Source of the DNA: a virus | DNA: 64,000 bases | IMG/VR virus record: IMGVR_UViG_3300030118_002460 | Span: 1 to 64,000 of that record | Reading direction: 5' to 3' (one strand) | Part shown: in pieces, positions 2,562 to 32,346 of the stretch | Position numbering within the stretch: the stretch's first letter is position 1 | How the letters are laid out: every line of letters begins with the position of its first letter | The notes under the pieces: model-generated | What the model saw: only the letters and a program-made list of their open reading frames with translations | What the model was told of the DNA's origin: nothing | Databases searched by the model: none | Made by a program: the position numbers and the translations under genes

Positions 2562-2582
2562 AGGTAGAATTCTTGTACCATT

Positions 2583-5165: not shown

Positions 5166-5170
5166 GATAA

Positions 5171-11100: not shown

Positions 11101-14100
11101 GTTTGTATCTGACTTTGTTCCCTCTGTTCTGTGGTATTCATTCAAGAATGTAAACACAACATTCTCTCCCCTCTCTAAGAGAGAACTTCTCATTGATGAA
11201 GATGTATCTTCCTTCAATCAAGTCAACCTGGTTGGTAGTCAATACGATGGATCACATACTGTCACTGGTATTGCATCCACATCATTCACATACAACCTTA
11301 GTAAAGTTCCTGATGTTGTGTCTTATGGTTCAACCAATTCATCTCCTACCTATGATACATCATCTCTGACTGCTTATGGTTCTATCACCAAGGCAGTAGT
11401 CACTAATCCTGGTGCAGGATATAGAAGTTTGCCTGGTATCAACACTGTAAGAAGTGGATTTGGTACTGATGCAATTCTTTTCCCTGAAAGTAGAAATATT
11501 GGTCAGATTCTGAATTATCAGTATTCATCTAAGAATATTGGTTTTGACTATCCATCTGATTACACACTCAGAACAGTTGCAAATCTTCCTGAAATACTTG
11601 AAATTGAATCTCTCAACTCATTTGTCAGAATTGGTATTTCATCAAATGGTAAGAATTATCTCTTAGCACCTGATTTGGTTGTTATTGATGGATATTCTAA
11701 CAGAATTGTTGATGAAGTCATTTTGACTTATGAACTTGGTGATAATCAAGTCTCAATTATTAGAAATACCACTGGATTGTATGAGACACCCCCTAGAATC
11801 ATACCAATCAACAATAGTAATGGTGTTGGAATTAATTCCATTGTCTATAATTCAAGCACTAAAATTGTCAGAGCCTTCTTTGACACTATTTTCAATGATC
11901 CAGAGGACTTCCCCTATGTAATTGGTGAAAAAGTGATGATTGAGGGAGTTAATGTTGGTCTCTCCACTGTTGGAACAGGATATAATTCAGACCAATACAA
12001 TTATTCTCTCTTCCCCATCACTGGTGTTCTTCCCAATCTAGGTGGAACAGGTGCATTTATTGATTATGATATGTCTGATGTCTTAAATGGCACTCAACAC
12101 CCTGGAAGTCCAATCTCTCCAATTAATGGTAGGGTAATTCCTGAGTCCCACTTGCCTATTTTTGACCCTGTTCTTGAACCTAATGATTATTTCCAAGATG
12201 AGACTGTAACAAATGGTTTGATTGAAGGAAATGTTGAAAGTTATAACAAAAATACAGAAATTCTGAAAGTTTCTACTCCTTTTGACTTCCAAATTGGTGA
12301 TACTGTAAGAGGTCTCACATCAAATACTCAGGGTATTGTAAAAACCAAGTATGATTTCAATGCAGAAGTCCAAACTGGTGCAGGTGCAACCATAATCAAT
12401 GGTTGGAATAGAAATACTGGTTTCTTGAATGACAATTTGCAAAGAATTCCTAATAATGAGTACTATCAGAACTTCTCATATTCACTGAAATCCAGTGTTG
12501 ACTTTGATACTTGGAATAATTCAGTTGGAGCACTTAACCATACTGCTGGATTCAAGAGATTTGGTGATCTTGAGGTTGAAAGTGCTGCTGCATCAGTTGG
12601 AGGACAGTCTGTTCCTATCAATGCTATTGATTCCAACCTTGAAACCATTGTGGATATTGTTGGTGAAGGTCATCTAAACTGTTTCTATGATTATGACAAT
12701 GTAACAGAGACAAGTTTCCTGGTAAATGGCAAAGAGTTCTCAAATGAGATCATCTTTGATAATAGAATCCTGTCTGACTTCTTCCAATCTGTTGGTAACA
12801 GAGTATTGAGTATTGATGATATCTCATCACAGTTCAATAGCAATGAAAGACCAACACCATTTCAACCAGTAGCATCATTTAATTCTGATTACACCTATAA
12901 CAAGATCATCACCTACGCAAGAGATAGGATATTTACTGATGAGAGACAATTTTCTATTGTTTCTATGATTCAGGATGAAAGTGTAGCATATATGCAAGAA
13001 TATGCCACAATTTATTCATACCCCCCTCTTGGATATTATGACTATATTACCACTGCTGATGGTTGGGACCTTCTGTTCTACCCAGTTAAGTATGAATTTA
13101 ATGTATATGATGTATCAGCAGTTGCTTTCAGCATCTTGGGTGATAAGGCAACAGTTGGAAGCAGACCATATGGTGATATTGCACTTGTTGACTCCCAGAG
13201 AGAACCAATTCCTGCAAGCACTGTAACCACTATTGTATCTGTGGGAACATCTTACAGAGCATTGAAGGTTATGACTCTGATTGAGGAAGTTTCAAGTGAT
13301 ATCTTCCATTCTGCTGAACTGAACATCCTCCATAATGGCACAGATGTTCAACTTCTTGAATATGGAAATATGAGTGAGGATGAAACTCTGGTATTCCAAG
13401 GAATTGGCACATATGGTGCAAGAATCAATGGTGGTAATGTAATTGTTGAATTCCATCCTAGTGTTGGGACAGCACTCACTGCAAATTCTGCTGTTATTGC
13501 TATTTCTAGTGGTGCTTCACCTGGAAGTGAAGATCTGAATGTTTCAAGAGTAGGTTCTGCTTACACCTTTATCGCTGCATCAGGCACCCCAACAGCAAAT
13601 GTCATTGATAACTATGAAGCTCCATATGAAACTGGTTATCATTTGGTTGTTGTAGAGAACACAACAGATAATGAGTTTGAATTCTTTGAATTTGCTGCTC
13701 TTGACTCCTCTTCTAATGAGTGTTGTGTTGAATGGGCAAACCTGTCAACAGGTTCAGGAATTGGAACTATTGGTGTAACCTCTACAACAGGTGGTCTTGA
13801 CCTTGTTTATACTCCAATTGCCAATAAAGCAGTTACAGTAAGGTCATATTTCAATAAATTACAAATTTTCAACAATAATACAAATCCTGATGAAATTGAT
13901 CTCAACAATTTAGTCATCAATAGTGATTTTGGTGATTATGCAGGTACAAAAATCAGTGTCAGGGATTCATTTGAACTTACTCATAAGGGTAATCCAATTT
14001 TCTCAAGAAGATTTGATGGTTCTAGTTCAGTTGTTGTTGATTTGAGCAATGACTTCATTCAAATCCCTAATCACTTCTTTGTAAGTGGTGAAAATGTTTC

Positions 14101-17100
14101 TTATGCAGCACAAGGCATAGGTCACACAGCTGCTATTGGTATTGTTACTGCCACAATTCCTGGAATTGGTGCAACTGCCAAACTTCCTGAGGATATATTC
14201 GTTGTCAAAATTGATGAGGGCAAAATTAAATTTGCTGCCACTGCTGAAGATGCACTTTCTGACCCACCAGTGACTTTAACCCTTAATTCTGTTGGTATTG
14301 GTAACTCACATACTATTACTGCTAAGAAGCAGAATTCAAAAGCATTGGTTGCCATTGATAATATGATTCAGGCTCCCATCGCCCCCACTCCTCATACTTC
14401 ATCCCTTGTAAATGGTATTACTTTTGACTTGACCTTCCTCACAACTCTTACAACTGGAATTTCCTCTTCAAAATTTGTCTCTGGTGACATTATCAAGATT
14501 GATGATGAATTTATGATTGTTAGAGCAGTTGATACCTTTGGTATTGATGGAAATATATCTGTCAGAAGACCAGTGCTTGGTTCTGTTCTTGCTGGACATG
14601 CTCCTGGTTCTACTATACAGAGATTTAGTGGAAATTACAATATTGTTGGAAATAGTATCAATTTTGCCTCTGCACCATATGGTAATATTCCCATTGGATC
14701 AACTACCAACCCACCTGATGAGCAAGATTGGACTGGAATCACTTCTAGTTCAACTTTCCAAGGTAGAACCTTTATGAAGGGTGCTGGTGCTGGAACCACA
14801 CTTGAAACTTATAACAGAAATCACGTATTTGATGATTATTCAACTTCTTTCACAGGTGTTACTAGTATATTCACACTTCAGAGTGAAGGAGTCAATGTTA
14901 CTGGAATTAATACTGATACAGTAATTTTGACTAACAATATCTATCAATCACCACAAGGTGTTCAGGTTGTTCAGGGTGATTATCAAGTTATTGAGAATAA
15001 TGGCATCAGTTCAGTCAGATATCTGAGTGAAGGAACACCAGAGGGTTATGATCCCAACAAATCCAGATTCCCTGCTGGTGGATTGATTGTTTCTGTTGGA
15101 TCTACTGAGGGTAATGGATATCAACCACTTGCATCTGCTGGTGGAACAGCAACTGTCTCTGCTGCTGGCACTATCTCTGCTATTAGCATTGGAAACAGTG
15201 GATCTGGTTATAGAGCAGGTGCTCAGGTTGTTAATGTTGGTGTTCAGACCTTTAATGGTGTTATTCCTTCAATTGAGAACATTGGAACAGCAACAATCCA
15301 GAATGGTCACATCGTAAGTGTCAATATTACTAATCCTGGTTCTGGTTACACCTCAACTAATACACCAGTTGTTGTATTTGATGATCCATTGAGTTATACA
15401 GATATCCCTCTTGAATATGCTGCACATAGTTCTGGTATTGGCAACAGTGCTACTATTGACATTGTGGTTGGGGCAGGATCTAGTGTAATCAGTTTTGAAC
15501 TCAGAGATCAAGGATTTGGTTATAGTTCTACTGAGGTTCTGACTATTCCTACTGGTGGTTTGAATGGTATTCCTCTGACTGGCACAGGATTCACTGAATT
15601 CCAACTCACAATTGATACTGTTTACAGTGATCAATTCAATGGTTTCTCACTGGGTGAGTTTGAAGTCTTTGATTCACTTTCTTCACAGTTTGATGGAACA
15701 CAGAAGTCATTCAAACTGCTGATTAATGATCAACCAGTATCAATCAGATCAAAAGCTGGTTCTAATGTTGATGTAGAGCAAACACTGCTTGTATTCCTCA
15801 ATGACATTCTGCAAGAACCTGGTGTTGCATATCAGTTCAATGGTGGTAGTATAATTAAATTTACTGAACCACCTAATGGTCCTCTTGATGGTGTTCCAGG
15901 CAGTGGTGACACATCAAAGGTTATCTTCTACAAAGGTTCAGGTGATGCTGATGTCATCTTCACTGACATTTTGGAGACAATCAAGGTTGGAGATACTCTT
16001 GACATCAATAACAATCCTGAACTTGGTCAACCCATTACTCTTGACCAAACTAAGAGAACTGTGACTGGCATCAATACTCTTGATTCAGTTGAAACTAACA
16101 ACTATCCTGGTCCTGGCATTTCAAGCGATCAAACCATCCTTAGACCAGTAACTTGGTGTAAGCAGATTACTGATAAGTTCATCAATGGTGGATTTGTAGG
16201 TAAAGATAGAATTGAATATGAACCAGAAATTTATCCTGCTTCATATCTCATTCAGACAATGGGTGTTTCTACAACCACTGCTTATGTTGATACTGTAAGA
16301 CCTCTTTACAATTCAAATAATGAGGCTGCAAATAGATTGTTCCAAAATGCAATCACAATCATATCACAGGATTCAAAGGTTGGAGCAAGTGCAACAGCAA
16401 CAGTCTCTGTTGGTGGTTCAATCACTGCTCTTAATATTACTAATGCTGGTGCTGGTTATACAGTGTCCACAGCATCTGTGACTATTGGTTCTGGTGGAAC
16501 TGCTACTGCCATTGCAAATATTACAAATGGAAGTGTAACATCCTTTACTATTTCTGAGGCAGGAACAGGATACACAGCAACAAATCCACCATCTATCCTC
16601 ATTGATACACCAGTTATAGTGAAAGAAGAGATGCCTATCAATTCATTTGCAGGTGACTTTGGTAGAGTTGTAGGATTTAGTTCTACAAAAGTAGGAGCAC
16701 AGAGTAAGTTTATCTTTGACCTGTTTATTGACAAAGATTCCTTTATGAGAGATCCAACTTATGTTGGAACTGGTGTTACAGTCAGTCAACTTGATGTTGG
16801 TGATTATCTGACCATCTTCAACACAAACATCAATGCTGGTGGTTCATTTGAAACACAAGATGCTTCTGGTGCTTCTGTTGGAACTGCAATTACATTCTCT
16901 GATGGAGTTTATGAAGTTACAGCAGTATCAACAGAACTGACTCCTGTTGCTGGTTATGGTGTAACTGCTGTGAGAAGAATCACCACTAATGTTGGGGCAG
17001 TTGGTAATGTAAGTTTTGGTTCTACTGTTTCAGGTGAATTTAGTTGGGGCAAGATCTTGATTAAGAATAGAAAAGAAGCAAATCTTTTCAATTCTCACAC

Positions 17101-17179
17101 TGATCAAGGATTTACAGGTCTCTCAACCAGCACTCTTGTTACTAGATCTGAGTCTCTTAGGTTCACAAACTACTTATAA
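5171..17179 (+). CDS. gp7: Giant baseplate wedge initiator gp7-like protein (4002 aa)
   Basis: Lies between gp6 and gp8; FYKSKGTDQSFEILFRALYG; YYQNFSYSLKS...LNHTAGFKRFG; repeated beta modules; YHYH-like domain. Confidence 0.8.
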   Translation: MAVDRVKFQDIVASQVPDFVKDDFPLLVDFLKEYYVSQEFKSGTYDLIQNLDQYVKVDQLYNIKNSTVLREDIDFLATTIITSADGNFTDGFPDTNGLLQIDEEIILYQSKTDTTFEGCVRGFSGVTDYTGTNTPDQLTFKESLSADHKKGATIVNLNVKFLQEFFSRIKTQFVPGFSERTLFQGLDQRNFIYNADSFYKSKGTDQSFEILFRALYGVDVEVVKPSKFLFKPSDADYRLTEDYVIEGYTGDPLELKNLTFYQDSTQARGTVTNVEKIDYADGDFYQIAIDYGYQRDTNVDGTIYGKFSPNPKTKIINNVSVGSTVIDVDSTVSFPQSGTLVLTDVDGDDFELVYQDKTLTQFLGVTTTTSSFESAGDICLDGYGYAIGPNGRIEVKIITTLTNLRLDSNTFFFKKDDTINIKSIGLESKQEKSEDWYYNVKTHWIVKEFTLIDATQKTYNIKTFDNQFIQPGYRLIVKSTAGDTRTLTVDNCLSKTEFVAVLSDIILPEDLKLIWTLENQILKGVSTKYNEINNINANVLNTYEKFDGSFLVASNSIPNYSGATDPFGRKIIFSGTANGDNLVLAPNGDHGFYTGDAVYYSPKTIIQTITTPNGFSYDVTSLSGFDNLNEGVYYIKRISATTVKLARSTSDIFNNRFLIPTGTVTNNEFCYYDFYQKNVSPQKIYREVNDPSPQVGQYLTAAGYNGILVNGVELINYKSFDTIFYGGIKTFDINNRGQGYDVVNPPKINVTDNIGTGATGTVAVEGSLREIRVIDSGFDYTDDPIVVISGGQGEDASARINLASVDHEVLFNAGPGPKSGLNFSANTVGFTSFHKFRDNERIVYVSDGVPGVTGLTTNADYYANVVDASTITLHDNYNDANAGINTVNISGYGIGNQVFKSYDRKKVVSNIVVDNQGKGYKNKERLIVGVNTAANTFTIGGHGYEEGEIIQYTAGSSPIVGLGATTKYYVCKIDSDTFALSEVGTGQTARDYFYNNKIKTNLLSTGNGTFNYEPITVRVQGTIGVNTATSQDFSCQVQPIFRGSIDSIDVTDQGVGYGASEILNFNRQPVITFNSGEGALLTPIISNGRIIEVLVNMGGEGYNSPPNLTISGIGSFCRLTPIIENGSITEVKVISGGAGYGPDTTVLVQPAGIEASVFTNINQWTVNLFARSFNNITDDDGIIETSLDLGSLQYSHLYPPRPLRENSYSIDSEGNTLYSERDLQRQNDIEVNSSKHSPILGWAYDGHPIYGPYAYNSPDGGPVTRMKSSYELAVDTSNRPPVSQYSEGFFVEDYVYRETGDLDECNGRFAITPDYPEGTYAYYTTIAEFSDTFGPFNNSRRPVFPYAIGNRFNSKPNAFNYDSSSNHVDYDIQKNEWFRNTTPYRLNSSLSGYDYIFNSNSIKKQVIDVTSASVGNIQGVGILTGGRDYRVKDQLIFDNSFTSGKNAAGKVERVSGKVVDSVSVASTQVFDIEFTPFAARGEFVGYSSVPHNLSNNDIVNISGLSEHYDGLDGNYTIGIGTGDFVLLTAVGDASVTGLTTFLNLGGALQYPFVRPDDIMVIDSEKFKVLNTDRQNQRLRVLRAQAGTAATSHLALTKAFKDPRSFTITAGTARTTKTPRLNNVLYFNPAESVGLGTVLGTGVGTTITFSNPGAGASVTVIPPQAILYPNHGLLLNEVVEYSTNGGASIEAWNGVTGSSSTVPITGMGTFFAVPLTNRFVGLSTNKVGISTLTGKYVGINSTPGLLFFTGVGTDVYHSLRTKRADVISGELQKNVVTVSTASTHGLFVNDSINFNLKPKDEVVVRVKYNEFNRRIVFDSQSFLASDVSTSDNSITFANNIFKTGDKVIYSSTTPSGGLVNEKMYYIVVHTPVKVRLVETRAEIKAVQPRFVNITSATAGTLSKVNPRIDISKNNTLKFDLSDPSLAFVSNNNLYSAFDFNLYSDSFYRSLYLTSAKSSAFEVTKSGQVGIDSTANLTLFVSDFVPSVLWYSFKNVNTTFSPLSKRELLIDEDVSSFNQVNLVGSQYDGSHTVTGIASTSFTYNLSKVPDVVSYGSTNSSPTYDTSSLTAYGSITKAVVTNPGAGYRSLPGINTVRSGFGTDAILFPESRNIGQILNYQYSSKNIGFDYPSDYTLRTVANLPEILEIESLNSFVRIGISSNGKNYLLAPDLVVIDGYSNRIVDEVILTYELGDNQVSIIRNTTGLYETPPRIIPINNSNGVGINSIVYNSSTKIVRAFFDTIFNDPEDFPYVIGEKVMIEGVNVGLSTVGTGYNSDQYNYSLFPITGVLPNLGGTGAFIDYDMSDVLNGTQHPGSPISPINGRVIPESHLPIFDPVLEPNDYFQDETVTNGLIEGNVESYNKNTEILKVSTPFDFQIGDTVRGLTSNTQGIVKTKYDFNAEVQTGAGATIINGWNRNTGFLNDNLQRIPNNEYYQNFSYSLKSSVDFDTWNNSVGALNHTAGFKRFGDLEVESAAASVGGQSVPINAIDSNLETIVDIVGEGHLNCFYDYDNVTETSFLVNGKEFSNEIIFDNRILSDFFQSVGNRVLSIDDISSQFNSNERPTPFQPVASFNSDYTYNKIITYARDRIFTDERQFSIVSMIQDESVAYMQEYATIYSYPPLGYYDYITTADGWDLLFYPVKYEFNVYDVSAVAFSILGDKATVGSRPYGDIALVDSQREPIPASTVTTIVSVGTSYRALKVMTLIEEVSSDIFHSAELNILHNGTDVQLLEYGNMSEDETLVFQGIGTYGARINGGNVIVEFHPSVGTALTANSAVIAISSGASPGSEDLNVSRVGSAYTFIAASGTPTANVIDNYEAPYETGYHLVVVENTTDNEFEFFEFAALDSSSNECCVEWANLSTGSGIGTIGVTSTTGGLDLVYTPIANKAVTVRSYFNKLQIFNNNTNPDEIDLNNLVINSDFGDYAGTKISVRDSFELTHKGNPIFSRRFDGSSSVVVDLSNDFIQIPNHFFVSGENVSYAAQGIGHTAAIGIVTATIPGIGATAKLPEDIFVVKIDEGKIKFAATAEDALSDPPVTLTLNSVGIGNSHTITAKKQNSKALVAIDNMIQAPIAPTPHTSSLVNGITFDLTFLTTLTTGISSSKFVSGDIIKIDDEFMIVRAVDTFGIDGNISVRRPVLGSVLAGHAPGSTIQRFSGNYNIVGNSINFASAPYGNIPIGSTTNPPDEQDWTGITSSSTFQGRTFMKGAGAGTTLETYNRNHVFDDYSTSFTGVTSIFTLQSEGVNVTGINTDTVILTNNIYQSPQGVQVVQGDYQVIENNGISSVRYLSEGTPEGYDPNKSRFPAGGLIVSVGSTEGNGYQPLASAGGTATVSAAGTISAISIGNSGSGYRAGAQVVNVGVQTFNGVIPSIENIGTATIQNGHIVSVNITNPGSGYTSTNTPVVVFDDPLSYTDIPLEYAAHSSGIGNSATIDIVVGAGSSVISFELRDQGFGYSSTEVLTIPTGGLNGIPLTGTGFTEFQLTIDTVYSDQFNGFSLGEFEVFDSLSSQFDGTQKSFKLLINDQPVSIRSKAGSNVDVEQTLLVFLNDILQEPGVAYQFNGGSIIKFTEPPNGPLDGVPGSGDTSKVIFYKGSGDADVIFTDILETIKVGDTLDINNNPELGQPITLDQTKRTVTGINTLDSVETNNYPGPGISSDQTILRPVTWCKQITDKFINGGFVGKDRIEYEPEIYPASYLIQTMGVSTTTAYVDTVRPLYNSNNEAANRLFQNAITIISQDSKVGASATATVSVGGSITALNITNAGAGYTVSTASVTIGSGGTATAIANITNGSVTSFTISEAGTGYTATNPPSILIDTPVIVKEEMPINSFAGDFGRVVGFSSTKVGAQSKFIFDLFIDKDSFMRDPTYVGTGVTVSQLDVGDYLTIFNTNINAGGSFETQDASGASVGTAITFSDGVYEVTAVSTELTPVAGYGVTAVRRITTNVGAVGNVSFGSTVSGEFSWGKILIKNRKEANLFNSHTDQGFTGLSTSTLVTRSESLRFTNYL

Positions 17180-17182
17180 ATA
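17175..17182 (+). promoter_or_regulatory. T4 late promoter
   Basis: Perfect TATAAATA upstream of gp8. Confidence 0.8.
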
Positions 17183-17202
17183 ACAAAAAAAGTCCTAACA
17201 AA

Positions 17203-18756
17203 ATGGCAGCGATAATTACTGACCAATTAAGAATTCTGAATGCAAAGAATTTTGTCGCTGGTGTTCAATCCAGTACAAACTCTTACTATGCATTTCTTGG
17301 TCTCCCTAATTCAACTGACTATCAGTCAGACTGGGATACAAATCCTCCTGCTCCCAAAGATAGTTTAGATCAGTCTAATGATTATTGGGACACTATGATT
17401 GCATTGAAGAAAATCAATGCTAGTGATATCAGTCAAGTAGTGAGAAAGATTACTTGGCAATCTGGTATCACATATGATATGTGGAGAAATGATATCACTA
17501 GAAGTAATGCTTCTCTGCCATCAGGATCTTTTGATATCTACTCTGCAAATTACTATGTAATGAATAAAGATTATAGAGTCTATATTTGCCTCTATAATAA
17601 TGCTGGTCCAGAGAATAACTTCAATGGTGGTCCTTCACTTGATGAACCAACATTTACTGATCTAGAACCAAGATCTGCTGGTTCTAGTGGTGATGGTTAC
17701 ATCTGGAAATATCTTTATACTATCAAACCAAGTCAGGCAATCAAGTTTGAATCTACAAACTATATTCCTGTCCCTAGTGACTGGGAGTCAAATAGTGATG
17801 ATGCTGCTGTTAGGCAAAATGCAGCATCTAGTGGTCAGTTGAAAATTGTAACTATTAGAAATCGTGGTGCAGGACTTGGAACTGCTAGAACTTATACACA
17901 GGTTCCCATTAAAGGTGATGGAGCAGATGGTGAAGCAACTGTTGTAATTAATGCTGACTCCAAAGTTGAATCAATTACTGTTTCAAAAGGTGGTTCTGGA
18001 TACACCTTTGGGACAGTAGATCTTGTTGCTGGTGGTGTTCCTGTTGGTTCTACCAGACCCCAATTCAATATTATCATCCCACCTGATGGTGGTCATGGTG
18101 CTGATGTATATAAGGAACTTGGTGCATACAATGTTCTGACTTATGCAAGATTTGAGAATGACACTGAAAACCCTGATTTTATCACAGGTAATCAGTTTGC
18201 AAGAGTGGGTTTGATTGAGAATCCACAGGCATTCAATTCATCATCTGTTCTCAATATTGATAAAGCAAGTGCTGTATATGCACTCAGACTAACAGGAGCA
18301 GGTTATAGTTCAGCAGTATTCACTGCTGATGCTGAAATCACACAAACTGTTGGTTTGGGTTCCACTGCTGTTGGTAGAGTCATTTCTTATGATCAAGTCA
18401 CTGGTGTTTTGAAGTATTGGCAAGACAGAACTAATTCAGGTTTCAACTTTGATGGAACACAAAATGCAACCCCCACATATGGGTTTGAAACACTCAGATT
18501 TAATGCCACACCCACAATTGATGGTAGTATCAATATTTTAGGAGGCAATATTACTCTTGGAATTGATACTGGTTTTACAGGTCTGACAACAGTAATAAAT
18601 AATAGGACATATAACCTAGGTCAGGACTTCACCAAAGGTGTTGCCCAACCAGAGTCTAAAAAGTATTCTGGGAACATTGTATATGTTGACAATAGACCAT
18701 CAGTTACAAGATCGTCATCACAAAAAGAAGACGTAAAGATTATCTTGCAGTTCTAA
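17203..18756 (+). CDS. gp8: Baseplate wedge subunit gp8
   Basis: YRVYICL, DGYIWKYLYTI, SGNIVYVDNRPSVTRSSSQKEDVKIILQF. Confidence 0.9.
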   Translation: MAAIITDQLRILNAKNFVAGVQSSTNSYYAFLGLPNSTDYQSDWDTNPPAPKDSLDQSNDYWDTMIALKKINASDISQVVRKITWQSGITYDMWRNDITRSNASLPSGSFDIYSANYYVMNKDYRVYICLYNNAGPENNFNGGPSLDEPTFTDLEPRSAGSSGDGYIWKYLYTIKPSQAIKFESTNYIPVPSDWESNSDDAAVRQNAASSGQLKIVTIRNRGAGLGTARTYTQVPIKGDGADGEATVVINADSKVESITVSKGGSGYTFGTVDLVAGGVPVGSTRPQFNIIIPPDGGHGADVYKELGAYNVLTYARFENDTENPDFITGNQFARVGLIENPQAFNSSSVLNIDKASAVYALRLTGAGYSSAVFTADAEITQTVGLGSTAVGRVISYDQVTGVLKYWQDRTNSGFNFDGTQNATPTYGFETLRFNATPTIDGSINILGGNITLGIDTGFTGLTTVINNRTYNLGQDFTKGVAQPESKKYSGNIVYVDNRPSVTRSSSQKEDVKIILQF

Positions 18757-18762
18757 AGAATT

Positions 18763-21700
18763 ATGCCACAGGAAACTAACCTTAACGTTGCTCCTTACTT
18801 TGACGATTTTGACAAAGGTAGCAACTATAACAAAGTCTTATTCAAGCCTGCATATCCTGTTCAGGCAAGAGAGTTAAATAATCTTCAGTCTATTCTTCAA
18901 GGTCAGATTGAGGATATGGGCGATAACCTCTTTAAAGAGGGTTCTGTAATCATCCCAGGTCAACTATCTTATAGTGATAAATTCTACTGCATTCAGATTC
19001 AAGCAGAGTATCTAGGTATTCCAGTTTCCTTGTACCTAGATCAACTGATTGGAAAGAGAATTGTTGGTAGGTCTTCTGGTGTAACTGCAACTGTTGTAAC
19101 TTTCATTTCAAATGAGCAATCTGTAAGAGGTCTTTATACACTTTATCTCAACTACGAAAACTCAGGTGATGATAATACCACTGAGTTCTTCCAAGATGAT
19201 GAGGTTCTGGTAACTGAATCTACAATCTCTTATGCAACTACATTTATTGCTGCAGGAGAGGGTTTTGCCAATACCATTGCAGTTGATGCAGCATCTGCTG
19301 GTTCTGCATTTGTCCTTCAGCAAGGTGTATATTATCTGAGAGGCCACTTTGTCAATGTTGACAGTCAGATCCTGATTCTTGAGCAATATGGAACTGCTGC
19401 CAGTTACAGAGTTGGTTTCACAGTCAATGAGGAGATTATATCATCTGATATTGATCCTGATCTGAATGATAATGCGCAGGGGTATAATAACTTTACAGCA
19501 CCTGGTGCTGATAGACTTAAAATTACAGCAACTCTGAGTAAAAAACTTCCTGATGACTTTACAGACCAGGGTTTTGTTCAACTTGCTGAATCACAGAATG
19601 GCATCCTGAGAGATGTCTCTAATGACACTAGATACAATATTTTAGGTGATGAACTTGCAAAAAGAACATTTGATGAGTCAGGTCATTATTATGTCAAAGA
19701 GTTTGTTACAAGTTGTAGAGAAAGTTTAGATAATCAAGAAGGCAATAAAGGAATCTATCGTGCTGGTCAGGTCACTGCTGGTGGTGGTATTCCATCTGAT
19801 GATATGATGGTTTACAAGATTTCCCCTGGTAAGGCATATGTAAGGGGATTTGAAGTAGAAAGACTGGCAACCACTCTGGTTGATGCCAAGAAACCAAGGA
19901 CAACTAGACTTGTTAAGAATCAAGGTATCAACTTTGGTTTTGGACCAACCTTTGCAGTTAATAGAGTCAGTGGTTCACCAATTATTGGAATTGATACATC
20001 TCTCACAATCAGTCTGAGAGACCAGAGAATTGGTGTAGGTTCATACACTGCTCCTGGTAAAGAAATTGGTGAAGCAAGACTTTATGACTTTGCATTAGAA
20101 TCAGGTTCATACAATAGTCTTAATCAAAACACCAACCAGTGGGATCTTTCACTATTTGATGTCACCACTTATCAAGATCTGGAAATCAATATTCCAGCAA
20201 CTTTGACATCACCACTTCACATTGAAGGTGAGTCCAGTGGTGCTACTGGTTTCCTTAAGTATAATGTTGCAAATGGCATAGGTCTTACAGCATACAGTGT
20301 TCAGGGTGAATTCTTCCAGGGAGAGAGACTCAAGTTTAATGGTGTTCTTGATGATGCCAGATTCCTCACAGATGCAAGAAAATACAACATTGGTGATATT
20401 AAGTCTGTCTTTTCTATTGTAGGAACAGGTAATACTTTCTCAGCAGATGTCATTCAGGAATCATCATTCTCATTTGATGTTTCTGAAATCACTGCTGCTT
20501 CTTTGGGCGTATCTACTATCACCACTCCTGCCCTTGGAAGCAGATCAATGACTGGCATTGCCACTGTTGGCAATCTAGTACAATATTCAAGACCAGGACT
20601 TTCTGTACCTTCACTTGCTAGAGTTAGAGAAGTTCTTACACAGTCAATTGTCATTGAACCAGTAACATCTATTGTTGGTGTATGTGATGGTTCTCTTCCA
20701 TCAGCAACATTTACTGTCAATGATCTTAAGATTGTTGATGCTGCTCTTCAGAATTCAAAGGGTTCAGGCAACTTTGCTAATAATGAATCACTGTACAGTA
20801 TATTCCCCAGACAGAACATTGAATCAGTAGATCTCACTGGTTCTGATATGATTTTCAGACAGAAGTTCAGCACTGTCATTGATGCTAATGGATCTTCTTC
20901 TGCTATTAATGTATCTGATCCCAATACTGAGAACTTCCTTTCCTTTGATGAGGAAAGATATTCACTGATTACATCTGATGGTGTGACAGAGGTATTGACT
21001 GCTGATAAGTTTAATTTTGCAGGTGGTTCAACTATTCTGACCATTGATGGTCTAAGTGGACCAGACCCCAACGCCACTCTGATTGCTACTGTTCGTAAAC
21101 AGAATGTTACATCTAAGACTAAACTGAAGAATGTAGCAAATAGAGTTATTGTTGATAAGTCTATCCTTTCTGGTTCTGGTATTGGTGGAACTACACTCAA
21201 TGATGGTCTCACTTTTGGTGATTTTCCATTTGGTACAAGAGTACAAGATAAGATTATCTCACTCAACACTCCTGACATCATAAGAGTTTATGGTGTATTT
21301 GAATCTGCTGATACAAGTGATCCAGAATCACCATTCATGAATGTTGCAAACATGAATGGTCCATCAGCAACCACCAATGACTTGATTATTGGTGAAACTG
21401 TAACTGGTGCAGTCAGTGGTGCAAAGGCAATTTACCTGACCAGAAAATCAGATACTGCCATTGGATTTGTATATCAGAATGACAGTGTTTTTGAGAACAA
21501 TGAAGTTCTCACATTCTCTCAATCAGGAGTTCAGGGACAAGCTAATAATCTTCAACCAGGTTCACTCAATGTAACTAGTGACTATCTGTTCTTCAATGGT
21601 CAAAAAGAGAGTATCTATGACTATGGTAGAATTTTGAGAAGAGGAGATAGAGCAACACCAACCAAAAAGTTGATTATCTACTTCTCAAATGCATTCTATG

Positions 21701-24700
21701 ATTCAGCAGATGATGGTGATATTACCACTGTAAATTCATATAATGATCTAGATTATTCCAAAGAGATTGCATCTGTCAATCAGGTCAGAGTGACTGACAT
21801 GATTGATGGTAGACCAAGAGTTAGTGACTATGTTGTGACACCTGGTGCTGCTTCACCACTGGAATTTGCTGGTAGAGCATTTGATGGTGGTCAACACAGT
21901 TCTAGTAGAATTATTGCATCAGATGAATCAATCACTCTTGACTATAACTACTATCTTGGTAGATCAGACAGAATCTTCCTGAATAAGGAAGGTGAACTCT
22001 CTATCAAGTATGGTGCTCCTGATGATATTCCTGTTCTCCCTGATGATGAGACTGGTTCATTGAATATTGCCAATGTCTTTATGCCTGCCTACCTTTACAA
22101 TGTGAAGGATGCCAGAATTAAGACTGTTGAGCATAAGAGATATCAGATGACTGATATCGCAAAACTTGAAGGAAGAATCAAGAATCTTGAATATTACACT
22201 TCATTGAATCTCCTTGAGCAGACTACTCTCAATACATTTGTTCCTGACATTAATGGTCTGAATAGATTTAAGTCTGGTATCTTTGTTGACAACTTCACTA
22301 CAACTCAACCACAGGATACTAGCATTGGTGTTAGAAACAGTATTGATGTTAAGAGAAAGGTTCTGAGACCTGCTCACTACTCCACATCATTCAACCTGAC
22401 TCTGGACCCCAATGCTAGTGGTGATACCAGATTTAATAACCTGATTGGTTCTGGTATTAGAAGAAATGGTCAGATGTTGACCCTTGATTACAGTGAAGTT
22501 CCCTGGATTACACAACCATTTGCTACAAGGGTTGAGAATGTAACTCCATTCCTTTCATTCTACTATCAAGGCAATATTGCTCTTGAACCAACTGCTGATA
22601 TCTGGATTGAAACCAACAGATTGGAGATGAGAAATGTCTCCATGGAAGGTTCATTCAGAGGTGTTGCAGAGGCACTTGGAGCAGAAATTACTGACAATGC
22701 TGATGGTTCAAGAATTGGTGCTACACCTGTTCTCTGGGACTCCTGGGAGACTACAAATGTTCAGGTTGATATTACATCAGCAACAACCAGATCAGAATCT
22801 GTTGCTGCTAGTGCTCAAAGACAGGGAACCAGTATTGGTGAATTGACTGGTGGTGCTGGTGCTGGTGCTGATATGAGTGCCAGTACAGTTGAAATAACAA
22901 CTATCAATGGCACTACAACCCTTGCACAGGAGAGAAGTGGCACTCAGCAGATTATTAATGAAGTAATTAACACTGAATCATTTGGTGACAGGATTGTTAA
23001 TAGAGAGATCCAACACTTCATGAGATCTCGTAACATTCAGTTTACTGGAACTAGATTGAAACCATTCACTCAACTCTATTCATTCTTTGATGGTGTTGAC
23101 GTCACCAGATTCAGTGTTCCTAAACTGATTGAAATTCAGATGCTTACTGGAACTTTTGTTCCAGGTGAAACAGTGACAGGTGTAATGCCCTCTTCTGAGA
23201 ATTCACAACTTACTAATGCTAATTCTAATGCATCAATTACATTTAGAGTTGCTAATTCAAATCACAAGTATGGTCCAATCCTTGCACCTACTGATACTTA
23301 CACTGCCAATCCATATGCAAGATCAAATGCAATCTCAACTGGATATACACAGTCATCAACTATTCTTAATGTAGACACATTCAGTCTTCAATCTGAGGAG
23401 TTCCCTGAATTCAATGGATATATTCAACAGGGCATGTTCCTTAGAGGTGAAAATGGTGCTGAGGCATTTGTAAGTCAGGTCAGATTGATTACTGACAATG
23501 TTGGCACACTCATTGGTTCTTATCTGGTTCCAGATAGTTCCAACCCTGCCAATCCTCTGTTTGAAACAGGTAGAAATCTGTTTAGACTTACCAGCAGTCC
23601 AATCAACAGTTTGATTAGGGGAACCACTTCAACATCTGGTCAGGAGATCTTCTACTCACAAGCAGATATTGATAATACCCAAGAAGTCACACTTTCACTG
23701 AGAAATGCATCTGTTGAGACTAATGATGACCTCCAGGATACTAGACAGGTAACAGAAACATTTACCAGAGAGGAAGTCACTGGATTTACCTTTGTACCCC
23801 CACCACCGCCACCACCACCACCAGATCCACCACCAGCACCCCCACGTCCTAGACCTGCTAGAACACGTAGGTCTAGTGATCCTCTGGCACAAACATTCTT
23901 TGTTGATGATGAGACAGGTGTGTTTGTTACTAAAATTGATCTCTTCTTCAGAACTAAGGCATCAACACTGCCTGTAACTCTGCAACTCAGAGAGACAATG
24001 ATGGGGATCCCCAGTCAGACTATTCTCCCCTATTCAGAGGTAGAAATCTTACCACAGAATATATTGACATCTGATGATGCAACAGCAAGGACTCAGATTC
24101 AGTTTGAGGCACCTGTTTATCTTGCAGGGGATAGGGAATATGCGATTGTGATGATGTCTCAGTCAACAGATTATACAGTCTATATTTCTAGATTGGGTGA
24201 ACCAGATGTAACAACTCTGGGAACTGAGGCAGGGCAAGTACTTGTAACATCACAACCACTTCTTGGTTCACTGTTCAAGTCACAGAATGCCACTGCATGG
24301 ACACCATCCCAGTATGAAGATCTTAAGTTCAATCTATACCGCTCTGACTTTGTTGGTGCTGGTAATGTTCAGTTCTTTAATCCAGATCTTCCTACCAACC
24401 TTGAAAGGATCAGTAGAAATGGTGTAACAGCAATTCCTAGAAACCTGAGTGTTGGCATTGGAACTACTATTTCTGATGGTGAACTCAGAATAGGTAACAC
24501 TATTCTTCAAGCTGATTCAGATGCAACTGGTGAACTTGTAGGATTTGCAGGTTCTATCACTGGTGCTCTTGCACTCACCAATGTTGGTTCAGGTTATACA
24601 CCTGCTAATGGTCAGTTCTCATATACTGGTGTTGCTCTGACAGCAGTGACTGGCACAGGTCTCAATGCAACTGCTGATATCACAATCAACAATGGTGTTG

Positions 24701-26331
24701 CTATTGCAGCAACAGTCAATGCTGGTGGTAAAGGATTCAGGGTTGGTGATGTTCTCACACCATTGAGTATTGGTAGTGAAGAACTTGGAAGTGGAATGCA
24801 ACTGTCTGTTCCTGAACTGAAAGGTTTCAATGAACTGATTCTTGATAAAGTCCAAGGAACATTTGGTCCCAATAACAGACTTCAATTCAAGGATGTATCT
24901 GGAATTGCTACTGATATCAATGCTGGCATTGGTGGAAGTGTATTCCCAGTTGGTCCACAGAGAATCAACAGTGATGGAAGGCATCTCAAGATCTTCCAAA
25001 GAAATCATGGCATGTACTCTGGTATCAACAGAGTCAATCTTCAGAATATTCAAACTGATGTTCCTGCAACTCAACTTACAAATGGATATCAGAAGGTTGA
25101 AACTGGTGTAATCTCTGTTGGTAATACTGCTAACTTTGGTGTCTTTGAAGGTGTTGGAGTTGGAGCTACTAACCCAGGTTATGTAAGAATTGGTGATGAA
25201 ATCATTGAATACACTGGTGTTTCTGATACTAACACATTGACTGGTATCACCAGCAGAGGTGTTGATGGCACACTGCCAGTTACACACAATGTAAATGATC
25301 TGGTCTACAAGTATGAGTTTGCTGGCATCTCTCTGAGAAGAATCAACACACAGCATACACTTGCTGATGCATCAGTTATTGAACCAATTGGAATTGACTA
25401 CTATCATGTCAGACTGGATATGTCTAAGAATGGCAATGATAAGTCTGAAACCTCTGCATCATTTGGTGCTAGATATCTGACTGAGATTAAACTTGGTGGT
25501 GGTATCAATGCAAGAGGAACATACAATCTTCCTTACAGTTTGATCATTCCTAATTTCAACACTACATCACCTACTGGCACTAATATCTTTGGTGCTGTAA
25601 GATCTGTGACTGAAACAAGTGTGTCTGGTACTGAGGTCTCATACATTGACCAAGGATTCCAAGAGATTGCAATGAAGGAGAAGAACTATTTTGATACACA
25701 GAGAATGGTTGTTTCTAAACCCAATGAGCAAGCATATCTGGGTTCTCTTCCTGGTAATAAGTCATTCACTATGAATCTCAATCTGAATTCATATGACAGA
25801 AGACTTTCACCTGCAATTGACCTCAATAGTTCTGCTGTTGTCTTTGTTTCCAATAGAGTCAATGCTCCTATCAGTGATTATGTCAGAGATTCAAGAGTCA
25901 ATGGCATAGGTCTGGACCCCAACAGTCTGATGTATGTAACCAAGAATGTTACTCTTGAAAATCCTGCAACATCTCTGAGAGTCTTTATTGATGGATATGT
26001 ATCTAACTTTAATGATGTAAGATTGTTCTATGCATTGGATCAAGATGTACCTGCTGTTGAGGCAGTCTACACTCCATTCCCTGGATTTAACAATATTGAT
26101 GATTTTGGTAATGTAATTAATCCAACATTGAATGATGGTACATCTGATGTTGTTGTCAGAAAGTCTGATCAGTACACACAGGAACCTGCTATCAACCTGT
26201 TCCAGGAGTATCAATTCTCAATTGAACAACTCCAACCATTCAGGACTTTCAGGGTCAAACTGATTGGAACATCTTCCAACCAAGCATGTGTTCCACAGTT
26301 CAGAAACCTTAGAGTGATTGCACTAGCATAA
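18763..26331 (+). CDS. Large virion structural protein (DUF4815/VrlC-like, 2522 aa)
   Basis: N-terminal NLNVAPYFDDF...VQARELNNLQ, APGADRL, RFKSGIFVDNF, DPLAQTF; synteny after gp8. Confidence 0.75.
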   Translation: MPQETNLNVAPYFDDFDKGSNYNKVLFKPAYPVQARELNNLQSILQGQIEDMGDNLFKEGSVIIPGQLSYSDKFYCIQIQAEYLGIPVSLYLDQLIGKRIVGRSSGVTATVVTFISNEQSVRGLYTLYLNYENSGDDNTTEFFQDDEVLVTESTISYATTFIAAGEGFANTIAVDAASAGSAFVLQQGVYYLRGHFVNVDSQILILEQYGTAASYRVGFTVNEEIISSDIDPDLNDNAQGYNNFTAPGADRLKITATLSKKLPDDFTDQGFVQLAESQNGILRDVSNDTRYNILGDELAKRTFDESGHYYVKEFVTSCRESLDNQEGNKGIYRAGQVTAGGGIPSDDMMVYKISPGKAYVRGFEVERLATTLVDAKKPRTTRLVKNQGINFGFGPTFAVNRVSGSPIIGIDTSLTISLRDQRIGVGSYTAPGKEIGEARLYDFALESGSYNSLNQNTNQWDLSLFDVTTYQDLEINIPATLTSPLHIEGESSGATGFLKYNVANGIGLTAYSVQGEFFQGERLKFNGVLDDARFLTDARKYNIGDIKSVFSIVGTGNTFSADVIQESSFSFDVSEITAASLGVSTITTPALGSRSMTGIATVGNLVQYSRPGLSVPSLARVREVLTQSIVIEPVTSIVGVCDGSLPSATFTVNDLKIVDAALQNSKGSGNFANNESLYSIFPRQNIESVDLTGSDMIFRQKFSTVIDANGSSSAINVSDPNTENFLSFDEERYSLITSDGVTEVLTADKFNFAGGSTILTIDGLSGPDPNATLIATVRKQNVTSKTKLKNVANRVIVDKSILSGSGIGGTTLNDGLTFGDFPFGTRVQDKIISLNTPDIIRVYGVFESADTSDPESPFMNVANMNGPSATTNDLIIGETVTGAVSGAKAIYLTRKSDTAIGFVYQNDSVFENNEVLTFSQSGVQGQANNLQPGSLNVTSDYLFFNGQKESIYDYGRILRRGDRATPTKKLIIYFSNAFYDSADDGDITTVNSYNDLDYSKEIASVNQVRVTDMIDGRPRVSDYVVTPGAASPLEFAGRAFDGGQHSSSRIIASDESITLDYNYYLGRSDRIFLNKEGELSIKYGAPDDIPVLPDDETGSLNIANVFMPAYLYNVKDARIKTVEHKRYQMTDIAKLEGRIKNLEYYTSLNLLEQTTLNTFVPDINGLNRFKSGIFVDNFTTTQPQDTSIGVRNSIDVKRKVLRPAHYSTSFNLTLDPNASGDTRFNNLIGSGIRRNGQMLTLDYSEVPWITQPFATRVENVTPFLSFYYQGNIALEPTADIWIETNRLEMRNVSMEGSFRGVAEALGAEITDNADGSRIGATPVLWDSWETTNVQVDITSATTRSESVAASAQRQGTSIGELTGGAGAGADMSASTVEITTINGTTTLAQERSGTQQIINEVINTESFGDRIVNREIQHFMRSRNIQFTGTRLKPFTQLYSFFDGVDVTRFSVPKLIEIQMLTGTFVPGETVTGVMPSSENSQLTNANSNASITFRVANSNHKYGPILAPTDTYTANPYARSNAISTGYTQSSTILNVDTFSLQSEEFPEFNGYIQQGMFLRGENGAEAFVSQVRLITDNVGTLIGSYLVPDSSNPANPLFETGRNLFRLTSSPINSLIRGTTSTSGQEIFYSQADIDNTQEVTLSLRNASVETNDDLQDTRQVTETFTREEVTGFTFVPPPPPPPPPDPPPAPPRPRPARTRRSSDPLAQTFFVDDETGVFVTKIDLFFRTKASTLPVTLQLRETMMGIPSQTILPYSEVEILPQNILTSDDATARTQIQFEAPVYLAGDREYAIVMMSQSTDYTVYISRLGEPDVTTLGTEAGQVLVTSQPLLGSLFKSQNATAWTPSQYEDLKFNLYRSDFVGAGNVQFFNPDLPTNLERISRNGVTAIPRNLSVGIGTTISDGELRIGNTILQADSDATGELVGFAGSITGALALTNVGSGYTPANGQFSYTGVALTAVTGTGLNATADITINNGVAIAATVNAGGKGFRVGDVLTPLSIGSEELGSGMQLSVPELKGFNELILDKVQGTFGPNNRLQFKDVSGIATDINAGIGGSVFPVGPQRINSDGRHLKIFQRNHGMYSGINRVNLQNIQTDVPATQLTNGYQKVETGVISVGNTANFGVFEGVGVGATNPGYVRIGDEIIEYTGVSDTNTLTGITSRGVDGTLPVTHNVNDLVYKYEFAGISLRRINTQHTLADASVIEPIGIDYYHVRLDMSKNGNDKSETSASFGARYLTEIKLGGGINARGTYNLPYSLIIPNFNTTSPTGTNIFGAVRSVTETSVSGTEVSYIDQGFQEIAMKEKNYFDTQRMVVSKPNEQAYLGSLPGNKSFTMNLNLNSYDRRLSPAIDLNSSAVVFVSNRVNAPISDYVRDSRVNGIGLDPNSLMYVTKNVTLENPATSLRVFIDGYVSNFNDVRLFYALDQDVPAVEAVYTPFPGFNNIDDFGNVINPTLNDGTSDVVVRKSDQYTQEPAINLFQEYQFSIEQLQPFRTFRVKLIGTSSNQACVPQFRNLRVIALA

Positions 26332-26561
26332 TGGATTTGTTACCAGTTCAAGGAAAAGATGATTTGCACAGGGACTCCCAGTCCCGTGCAATCATCAATA
26401 CTGATCATTCAAGATTTGAGGCATACATGAATTCAAGGAATAGACTCTCTGCTGAAAAACAGAGAGTTGAGAATCTTGAAAAGAAAGTTGAAGACCTCTC
26501 TGATAATATAAATGACATCAAGTCAATGCTCCAAACTATCATAAAGCAAAATGGCCAATAA
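26331..26561 (+). CDS. Hypothetical coiled-coil protein (76 aa)
   Basis: Coupled to upstream stop; C-terminal heptad pattern. Confidence 0.7.
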   Translation: MDLLPVQGKDDLHRDSQSRAIINTDHSRFEAYMNSRNRLSAEKQRVENLEKKVEDLSDNINDIKSMLQTIIKQNGQ

Positions 26562-26928
26562 CACCATTACATTTGACCCTGCTGCTGGTGTAGCATATGG
26601 AGTCAATTTTACTATTAACAAAGGTGCTTCTTTCAGATCAACCTTTCAGGTGACAAACAATGATAACTCAAACTTTGACTTCACTGGTTATGCTGGAACT
26701 GCAATGATGAAAAGATCCAATAATGTTGGATCTAGTGTGGCAATCGCTGCAACCTTTGCAGTTGGATTTACTAGTGCAAGTAGTGGTCAATTTAAACTAT
26801 CTTTAACTGACACAGAGGTTAATACTCTAAAACCAGGGAGATATTACTATAATATGAATGTCAGTATTGGTTCAAGCGTTTACAGAATCATTGAAGGTAA
26901 TGCTCTGGTTGTTGGTGGGGCTGTCTAA
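26551..26928 (+). CDS. Virion structural protein (beta-sandwich)
   Basis: FDFTGY, LSLTDTE...LKPGRYYY...RIIEG pattern; lies in the late operon. Confidence 0.65.
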   Translation: MANNTITFDPAAGVAYGVNFTINKGASFRSTFQVTNNDNSNFDFTGYAGTAMMKRSNNVGSSVAIAATFAVGFTSASSGQFKLSLTDTEVNTLKPGRYYYNMNVSIGSSVYRIIEGNALVVGGAV

Positions 26929-26931
26929 ATA
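26926..26931 (+). promoter_or_regulatory. T4-type late promoter core
   Basis: TAAATA upstream of gp13. Confidence 0.6.
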
Positions 26932-26950
26932 GTAAAAAAAATAGTGTATA

Positions 26951-27829
26951 ATGGCTCAACCTTCTACACGACAAGAATTGATAGATTATTGCCTGAGACA
27001 GTTGGGAGCACCTGTCCTGGAAATAAATGTAGCAGAAGAACAGGTTCAAGACTTGGTTGATGATGCTATACAATTCTTTCAAGAAAGACATTTTGATGGT
27101 GTTCATCAGACGTATCTGAAATATCGTATCACACAAGATGATGTTGATAGAGGTTTGGCGCGTCCACCAGGAGCACCAACTAGTGATGCAGGAAGTGTTG
27201 GTATTGCTTCCACCTCAGCAACTACAAATATTGTAGGAACTGCCACAACATTCACATATTATGAGAACAGCAATTATCTGCAAGTAAATCCTGATATCAT
27301 TGGTATCAATAAAGTATTCCAGTTTGATGGATCTTATAGTGGATCTGGAATGTTCAATATCAAATATCAATACATGCTTAATGATGTATTTGGTATGTGG
27401 GGAGGATATGGTGCATCAGGAATGGACCTGACCTCCTATGATATGACTATGAGTTATTTGGAGACTATGAACTTCCTTCTGAATACTCATAAACAGATTA
27501 GATTTAATCAAAGAAAAGATAGAATGTATCTTGATATTGATTGGGAAACTTTGAAAAAGGATGATTATCTGGTTATTGACTGTTGGAGAGCAATGGATCC
27601 CAATGACTACTCAAGAGTCTGGAATGATTCATTCCTGAAACCATATCTGACTGCTCTTATTAAGAAGCAGTGGGGTCAAAACCTTATCAAATTCCAGGGT
27701 GTCAAACTTCCTGGTGGCATTGAGTTTAATGGCAGAGCAATCTTTGATGATGGTCAGAGAGAACTTGATGAGATTAGACAAAAGATGCTGAGCACCTATG
27801 AACTTCCACCATTAGATATGATAGGTTGA
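26951..27829 (+). CDS. gp13: Neck protein gp13
   Basis: ELIDYCLRQLGAPVLEINV, QWGQNLIKFQGVKLPGG. Confidence 0.92.
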   Translation: MAQPSTRQELIDYCLRQLGAPVLEINVAEEQVQDLVDDAIQFFQERHFDGVHQTYLKYRITQDDVDRGLARPPGAPTSDAGSVGIASTSATTNIVGTATTFTYYENSNYLQVNPDIIGINKVFQFDGSYSGSGMFNIKYQYMLNDVFGMWGGYGASGMDLTSYDMTMSYLETMNFLLNTHKQIRFNQRKDRMYLDIDWETLKKDDYLVIDCWRAMDPNDYSRVWNDSFLKPYLTALIKKQWGQNLIKFQGVKLPGGIEFNGRAIFDDGQRELDEIRQKMLSTYELPPLDMIG

Positions 27830-27833
27830 TTCC

Positions 27834-29237: not shown

Positions 29238-29239
29238 CA

Positions 29240-29812: not shown

Positions 29813-29815
29813 CTC

Positions 29816-29821
29816 TAAATA
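29816..29821 (+). promoter_or_regulatory. T4-type late promoter core
   Basis: TAAATA upstream of gp15. Confidence 0.6.
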
Positions 29822-29843
29822 GAAATATAATCAATTCACAACA

Positions 29844-30854: not shown

Positions 30855-30866
30855 TAGGAATGAATC

Positions 30867-31289: not shown

Positions 31290-31314
31290 TAACAAAGAAA
31301 TTCTTACCTATAAA

Positions 31315-32338: not shown

Positions 32339-32346
32339 AACTTATA

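Follow-up and report, generated by a model that had tools for sequence, protein, structure and literature searches.

The degenerate word RGCY (R, purine; Y, pyrimidine; i.e., AGCT, GGCC, AGCC, and GGCT) is the site of the CviJI system of chlorovirus IL-3A, in which R.CviJI cuts RG^CY and M.CviJI makes 5-methylcytosine. Here, we describe the avoidance of the same four-word set in a 64,000-nucleotide stretch of viral DNA (IMG/VR virus record IMGVR_UViG_3300030118_002460, positions 1 to 64,000; this whole stretch is called the window hereafter), which includes gp8, a baseplate wedge gene devoid of such sites. The likeness to CviJI would extend to the sensitivity to a C5 substituent on the central cytosine. 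However, the chlorovirus is a virus of a eukaryotic alga that protects its own DNA by methylation, whereas here protection would consist in the lack of sites, and no C5 methylase was found in the contig.

A second point of comparison is phage T4, which combines hydroxymethylcytosine with endonucleases II and IV. This is a cytosine-based distinction between self and host DNA, so that host DNA can be degraded; T4 marks all of its cytosines, and its RGCY ratio (observed/expected) is 0.93. The avoidance of restriction sites by phages likewise removes short self-complementary words at synonymous positions, as seen for CTAG, CCGG, GATC, and CATG in the same genomes as those considered here. Site avoidance itself is therefore known. 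What is unusual here is that the word is degenerate and includes the nonpalindromic pair AGCC/GGCT, that its removal is partial, that we know of no cognate enzyme, that the avoidance is constant across a family infecting unrelated hosts and absent from the other phages infecting those hosts, and that it is reciprocal with a published hypermodification.

An AGCT void is described in clade-A pandoraviruses (10.1101/712018), in which a four-base GC-centered word has likewise been erased through the choice of codons. Those viruses infect eukaryotes, whereas the present case concerns a phage, a 3- to 7-fold purge, and a natural "rescue" lineage. This rescue involves the CmoA-CmoX-CmoY system of Synechococcus phage S-B43 (PMC12783734; PDB ID 8YF3), found in the same phage family. 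According to the main text of PMC12783734, CmoX adds a carboxymethyl group to C5 of GC cytosines, glycine is then attached to the product, and about 75% of the GC sites in S-B43 virion DNA are modified. The target is thus the same GC, but carriers of the system are not RGCY-poor, and the window phage differs from them in having no CmoX in its 86 kb. A term search for site avoidance or depletion in that main text returned only S-adenosylmethionine depletion, the supplements lying outside the search. More generally, we found no printed description of RGCY avoidance in cyanophages or T4-like phages, with picocyanobacteria covered as well and subscription journals and supplements outside the coverage.

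RGCY depletion in the window

The window covers the first 64 kb of an IMG/VR contig of 86,331 bases, which CheckV rates as 45% complete. Its genes include those for a T4-type baseplate, neck, terminase, sheath, and portal, and the portal protein is 75 to 76% identical to the portals of Synechococcus phage S-B05 and Prochlorococcus phage P-TIM68. These features place the source phage in the family Kyanoviridae, as a T4-like cyanomyophage. The window has a G+C content of 0.39 and a CG observed/expected ratio of 0.113.

The 1,554 bases of gp8 contain 46 GC dinucleotides, with 13 RGCA, 1 RGCG, 19 TGCY, and 12 TGCA words, but no RGCY; our recount matches the gp8 counts of the first-pass annotation (0 RGCY, about 13 RGCA, and 1 RGCG). 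When synonymous codons are permuted within each open reading frame (ORF), so that the protein and the per-gene codon usage are kept, gp8 is expected to hold 8.9 ± 2.3 RGCY, and none of 2,000 shuffles was as low as the observed zero. The giant gp7-like gene has eight sites (positions 6167, 7969, 11872, 13618, 14128, 14371, 15754, and 16324) instead of the 69.5 ± 6.2 expected by shuffling, a level reached in 0 of 300 shuffles. The first-pass annotation was right that gp7 keeps few sites, although it listed seven, missing the one at 13618, and placed two of them one base off.

The same holds for the window at large. Its 53 plus-strand ORFs contain 85 RGCY, compared with 433.5 ± 14.1 in the shuffles, the lowest of 300 shuffles having 391, and all three codon phases are depleted (18 observed versus 66.5 expected, 17 versus 158.4, and 50 versus 208.5). 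Amino-acid-pair composition, which the first-pass annotation had named as a possible explanation that would refute its claim, does not account for the deficit, since protein-keeping shuffles still expect about five times more sites. By Markov expectation (maximal order for each 4-mer), the window holds 84 RGCY where about 305 are expected. The ratios are 0.25 for AGCC (12 observed versus 47.9 expected), 0.26 for GGCT (23 versus 87.8), 0.29 for AGCT (40 versus 138.1), and 0.30 for GGCC (9 versus 30.5). No other word falls as low among the 209 non-CG words expected 10 times or more, the next being CATG at 0.49. Neither of the two refuting conditions set in the first-pass annotation, on word ranks without CG and on amino acid pairs, thus holds.

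Codon choice follows the neighboring base, as the first-pass annotation had noticed. The alanine codon after A is GCA in 218 cases and GCY in 31; after G, the counts are 97 and 14 (315 versus 45 after either purine), whereas after T they are 273 and 425. Similarly, the base after GGC is A in 109 of 127 cases, and that after AGC is A in 61 of 72. RGCA and TGCY are overrepresented in the window (1.45 to 1.54 by Markov expectation). This excess and part of the TGCA deficit (0.67) would follow from the codon swaps that remove RGCY. TGCA was considered as a second GC-centered target, but its deficit is probably a by-product, since RGCY removal raises the Markov expectation of TGCA; in the shuffle test, it falls outside the 30 lowest words.

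The nonpalindromic pair AGCC/GGCT is depleted as strongly as AGCT and GGCC. On the coding strand, AGCC is as low as GGCT, which places the signal on double-stranded DNA rather than on RNA and argues against a translation effect. The RGCY depletion is therefore real, acting at the DNA level, strand symmetric, frame independent, and directed at one degenerate word.

The purge is nevertheless partial: 84 sites remain in the 64 kb, and the depletion, although fairly even along the genome, is weaker in the other 22 kb of the contig (0.23 to 0.59 per word). In gp22 and gp23, RGCY accounts for 0.15 and 0.14 of all GC dinucleotides, versus about 0.03 in gp7, gp8, and a gene of 2,522 amino acids. The least depleted gene is gp23, with 11 RGCY where 15.3 are expected by shuffling, and it is also the least purged gene in P-TIM68 (9 versus 14.6) and S-PM2 (12 versus 18.1). 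This retention may be due to selection on translation, the gene being expressed at a very high level, or to a recent recombination event. The surviving sites show nothing clear in their 5' flanks (A, 0.88; C, 1.30; G, 1.26; T, 0.79; in podoviruses, 0.90, 1.32, 0.80, and 1.02, respectively), and their clustering is weak, with 9 gaps under 50 bases versus 5.4 expected.

Table 1. Features discussed in the text, with their coordinates in the window
Feature	Coordinates	Strand	Remarks
Whole window	1..64000	.	RGCY down to 84 sites, 1.3 per kb
gp8 baseplate wedge gene	17203..18756	+	Pfam PF09215 (Phage-Gp8), E = 2.1e-14; zero RGCY
Giant gp7-like baseplate gene, 4,002 amino acids	5171..17179	+	8 RGCY
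gp22 scaffold and gp23 major capsid genes	44543..47093	+	Cluster of surviving RGCY, 18 of 84
Dam-family adenine methylase	62625..63482	+	PF02086, E = 1.4e-33; TIGR00571 dam, E = 3.1e-27, below the model cutoff

Distribution among phages and hosts

RGCY avoidance is a trait of nearly all members of the Kyanoviridae and is not peculiar to the window phage. Whole-genome RGCY ratios are 0.36 in HTVC008M, 0.34 in S-PM2, 0.30 in Syn9, 0.15 in S-SRM01, and 0.41 in P-SSM2. For P-TIM68 and S-SM2, for which 50-kb pieces rather than whole genomes were used, AGCT and AGCC/GGCT stand at 0.30 to 0.40, while GGCC is absent from the P-TIM68 piece (0 observed versus 7 expected) and at 0.77 in that of S-SM2 (18 versus 23). 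Of the IMG/VR loci anchored on the portal gene, 78 were usable; their median ratio is 0.42, and 62 of them lie below 0.6. The hosts of the RGCY-poor phages comprise high- and low-light Prochlorococcus, marine and freshwater Synechococcus, and Pelagibacter.

The hosts themselves are undepleted, with a pooled ratio of 1.01 (8,005 observed/7,933 expected) over 36 Prochlorococcus loci and of 0.92 to 0.96 in six Synechococcus/Cyanobium loci. The same is true of their other phages. In 80 P-SSP7-like podovirus loci (pooled ratio, 0.96), AGCT is at 1.05 and AGCC at 0.97, and only GGCC is low (0.22); the RGCY words of Syn5 lie between 0.89 and 1.14, and the siphovirus P-SS2 is at 0.97. The contrast holds within one Pelagibacter strain, in which AGCT is at 1.01 in the podovirus HTVC010P versus 0.53 in the Kyanoviridae member HTVC008M. 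Shared avoidance among the phages of one host, the classical sign of a host-driven effect, is thus not seen in the podo- and siphoviruses. As a separate observation, the GGCC-only avoidance in cyanopodoviruses suggests a distinct HaeIII-type pressure from their hosts.

T4-like phages outside the family also lack the trait: besides T4, KVP40 has AGCT at 0.96 and AGCC at 0.98, RB49 has AGCC at 1.16, and phiM12 has AGCT at 0.96 and AGCC at 0.97, GGCC being the only RGCY word that is low (0.07). Other words show near-total voids of a lineage-specific kind, such as CTAG in S-SM2 (0 versus 82), CCGG in S-B05, Syn9, S-PM2, and P-SSM2 (0 to 1 versus 16 to 39), GATC in HTVC008M (0.20) and in the Methylophilales phage Melnitz (0.05), and TGCA (0.19) and CTAG (0.09) in phiM12.

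The captured host gene psbA allows a comparison at nearly constant protein sequence (at least 83% identity). The median RGCY count of host copies is 16 for those of Prochlorococcus-like type (n = 34) and 26 for those of Synechococcus-like type (n = 7), and the copy in the podovirus P-SSP7 has 15, whereas those of P-SSM2, P-TIM68, S-SM2, Syn9, and S-PM2, all myoviruses without CmoX, have 4 to 6. Sites are therefore lost after the gene enters these genomes. The two CmoX carriers have nine sites each, between the counts of hosts and of other myoviruses.

Despite the extreme CG loss in the window, RGCY loss is not its by-product. Relatives with CG observed/expected ratios of 0.5 to 0.7 are equally RGCY-poor, most RGCY-poor genomes of the family lie between 0.4 and 0.7, and over the 78 portal loci the RGCY ratio correlates negatively with the CG ratio (Spearman rho, -0.42). 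As to base composition, P-SSP7 has the same G+C content as the window (0.39) and an RGCY ratio near 1.

Release in carriers of CmoA and CmoX

Two members of the family escape the rule, and both carry CmoA and CmoX. S-B05 has an RGCY ratio of 0.85 (0.86 over 42 kb) and was the only one of the nine phage genomes first searched to have a gene of the C5 methylase family PF00145. Its product is 100% identical to PDB ID 8YF3 (CmoX), with a CmoA homologue and an Asn-synthase-like ligase adjoining. The freshwater phage S-CRM01, at 1.09 genome-wide, carries CmoA (TIGR00740, E = 2.4e-34) and a CmoX that is 66% identical and keeps the SPPC motif and Arg-350. S-SRM01, a freshwater control without a PF00145 gene, is at 0.15. 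In IMG/VR, 80 loci were anchored on close CmoX homologues; the 76 usable ones all have ratios of 0.6 or more, with a median of 0.85 (Mann-Whitney P = 3e-21 versus the portal set). When the 136 strand-symmetric 4-mer classes are ranked by their rise from the portal set to the CmoX set, GGCC, AGCC/GGCT, and AGCT take the first three places, while CCGG, GTAC, GATC, and CTAG are low in both sets. RGCY avoidance is therefore specifically lifted in the two lineages with CmoA and CmoX.

Modification and depletion are thus related in the reverse of the way proposed in the first-pass annotation, since the phages that modify GC cytosines are the relatives without depletion. That annotation had read the RGCY deficit as a second cytosine modification or restriction pressure beside the one on CG, giving a dual-motif epigenetic system, and had suggested a search for two C5 methylases. 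The part concerning a restriction-like pressure on DNA, separate from CG loss, stands. Cytosine modification of RGCY by the phage is not supported, as the 86-kb contig (45% complete) has no PF00145 C5 methylase, its two methylases being Dam-type and N4-cytosine-like, and no deamination footprint is seen. Indeed, the deamination products RGTY/RACY are not in excess (AGTT, 1.04; AGTC, 1.08; GGTT, 0.87; GGTC, 0.95), which rules out 5-methylcytosine deamination as the cause. PF00145 genes are also absent from the complete genomes of P-TIM68, S-SM2, Syn9, P-SSM2, S-PM2, HTVC008M, and S-SRM01, all RGCY-poor. No CmoX was found in the contig. Both sites at which the relatives S-B05 and S-CRM01 carry CmoA/CmoX are present and filled otherwise: the stretch after mazG (71692 to 71913), a CmoA/CmoX site in relatives, holds an amino-methylase, and the stretch from gp44/gp62 to regA/hsp20, the CmoA-CmoX site in S-CRM01, holds the Dam-type methylase. 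The latter is the only DNA methylase gene inside the window and is not a cytosine methylase. Judged by its gene content and word counts, the window phage appears to avoid RGCY rather than modify it.

The contig does carry a PF01555 methylase 11 kb past the end of the window (75061 to 75831 of the contig; L427:1441-2211). Its best solved relative is the bdelloid-rotifer N4CMT (E = 4e-42), a CpG-specific cytosine-N4 methylase preferring ACGT, and ACGT is the least depleted CG word in the window (47 observed versus 50 expected). P-TIM68, whose CG observed/expected ratio is 0.07, has an 81%-identical copy, while no close copy was found in eight phages with CG ratios of 0.42 to 0.83. Extreme CpG loss and a CpG-type N4 methylase thus occur together, which bears on CG and not on RGCY.

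Two side observations concern related genes. Melnitz has a C5 methylase homologue (L431:4010-5227) that is 43% identical to CmoX, with Leu at the position of CmoX Arg-350 (Asn in ordinary methylases) and no CmoA gene adjoining. In addition, 4 of the 276 ORFs of HTVC008M are found in all four RGCY-poor cyanomyophages compared and absent from both CmoX carriers; they encode a tryptophan-halogenase-like flavoprotein, two 2OG-Fe(II) oxygenases, and a product of 86 amino acids (L089:23199-25158 and L089:17443-18012 are among their coordinates), and with only two CmoX lineages this distribution may be due to chance.

Possible agents and meaning

We consider it probable that the avoidance reflects selection against an RGCY-directed nuclease that is blocked by C5 modification. 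Continuing selection on double-stranded DNA would keep RGCY rare in nearly all Kyanoviridae, with synonymous codons chosen by their neighbors, for instance GCA where a purine precedes and GCY where T does. The agent would be an endonuclease, or another DNA-damaging enzyme, reading RGCY with an unmodified cytosine as CviJI does, so that each leftover site would be a risk and fewer sites would mean better survival. Lineages in which CmoA and CmoX (with CmoY in S-B05) attach a bulky C5 substituent to GC cytosines would be shielded, and their RGCY would then drift back to expectation. As to the origin of the nuclease, we lean tentatively toward an enzyme that travels with the family or is met by the family alone, ahead of ordinary host restriction, because the trait tracks the family of the phage rather than its host and because restriction systems are described as uncommon in these hosts (PMC6708340).

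Several points weigh against this reading. A family-encoded RGCY nuclease was not found among 15 family-signature genes, i.e., those of the 276 HTVC008M ORFs that four RGCY-poor cyanomyophages share and that T4, RB49, and phiM12 lack (a screen covering neither KVP40, P-TIM68, nor S-SM2, represented by 50-kb pieces only). The single nuclease fold among the 15, a MGME1/Cas4-like PD-(D/E)XK exonuclease, is unconvincing as a site-specific enzyme and is also present in CmoX carriers; likewise, PHROGs gave no nuclease among 10 window ORFs of unclear role. With 84 sites left in 64 kb, enough for an efficient four-base cutter to destroy the DNA, the agent must be weak, cooperative, or brief rather than an efficient single-site cutter. 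The same counts would result if the family's own machinery had a context-dependent mutation or repair bias that C5 modification blocks. The link to CmoX comes from two lineages, the 80 CmoX loci forming one clade (at least 86% identical) and lying in another part of the genome than the portal loci. Depletion is milder in members and relatives that do not infect cyanobacteria (0.65 in Melnitz, 0.67 in seven HTVC008M-like loci, and 0.74 in 73 more distant loci), and host therefore matters to some degree. Finally, three portal loci with high ratios (L009, 0.84; L025, 0.91; L024, 0.79) nest among depleted sisters in the portal tree, on contigs too short to say why; these phages may carry CmoX or another GC modification. 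As five of the nine high-ratio rows of that tree (L009, L024, L025, L074, and L080) are loci of 4 to 12.5 kb on contigs too short to be checked for CmoX, the tree was not used for counting losses of avoidance.

A bolder form of the nuclease hypothesis, which we regard as unlikely, is that the Kyanoviridae themselves carry or induce a frequent-cutting RGCY nuclease or nickase that shreds host DNA for nucleotides, the phage being spared as cutting would need closely spaced sites. Host DNA has 10 to 34 RGCY per kb, and the phage genome has 1 to 2 per kb. If this were true, self and nonself would be distinguished by how rare a word is, rather than by a chemical mark as in T4; CmoX lineages would have swapped scarcity for a mark; and the purge of captured host genes such as psbA would be explained.

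Avoidance of host restriction-modification is about as doubtful an explanation. Some picocyanobacteria would have an RGCY-specific enzyme or a combination of AluI-type and HaeIII-type enzymes; broad-host myoviruses would meet it on switching strains, while specialist podoviruses would leave their hosts already methylated and so escape selection. Restriction-site avoidance is known in phages, and the genomes examined here do show classical lineage-specific voids in CTAG and CCGG. To our knowledge, however, there is no host enzyme of RGCY specificity (REBASE was not searched). A C5 methylase was found in 37 of 301 sampled genomes of the host family, one of them in a Prochlorococcus island (genome G191, contig 1, around 346 to 355 kb; L423) with Vsr, the C5 methylase, HATPase_c_3, a Z1 domain, DUF4420 (PD-(D/E)XK), and AIPR; other Prochlorococcus genomes have a C5 methylase fusion of 680 to 730 amino acids adjoining DUF6339. 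The stronger depletion in cyanobacterial family members than in those of Pelagibacter and OM43 would also fit, as would the intracellular nature of resistance to generalist T4-like cyanophages described in PMC6708340. Nevertheless, one and the same degenerate word is avoided whether the host is Prochlorococcus, a marine or freshwater Synechococcus, or Pelagibacter; podo- and siphoviruses infecting these hosts are undepleted, and the host genomes have no RGCY bias.

Still less likely is the neutral erosion of RGCY by the replication and repair machinery of the Kyanoviridae, through a context-dependent bias to which C5-modified cytosines are immune. It would agree with a trait that follows the phage family, with a depletion that is partial and fairly even along the genome, and with the loss of sites from host-derived psbA after its entry. 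However, the transition products RGTY/RACY are not enriched (0.87 to 1.08), and the replacements RGCA and TGCY alter one flank or the other while leaving the C in place. Moreover, the effect is exactly symmetrical across AGCT, GGCC, and AGCC/GGCT, as for a recognition site, and the highly expressed gp23 is the gene that retains the most sites, which better suits a balance of two selective forces than a uniform mutation bias. We know of no such mutation bias in T4-type polymerases. That RGCY loss is a by-product of protein composition, codon usage, or CG depletion is very improbable: related phages do share structural proteins and the CG depletion of the window does reshape codon choice, but the expectation is still five times higher in shuffles keeping both protein and codon usage, S-B05 and S-CRM01 are undepleted with the same set of proteins, relatives at ordinary CG levels are just as RGCY-poor, and P-SSP7 is near expectation at the same G+C content.

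T4-like cyanophages rank with the most abundant viruses of the sea and with those studied best. A family-wide avoidance that includes the models Syn9, S-PM2, and P-SSM2 would mean that a GC-centered DNA-cutting activity still shapes their genomes, and the link to CmoX would give the carboxymethylcytosine pathway a concrete job, that of covering RGCY. Avoiding or modifying the word would then be a natural pair of states in culturable phages, and RGCY density may serve as a quick marker of GC-cytosine modification in uncultured cyanomyophages.

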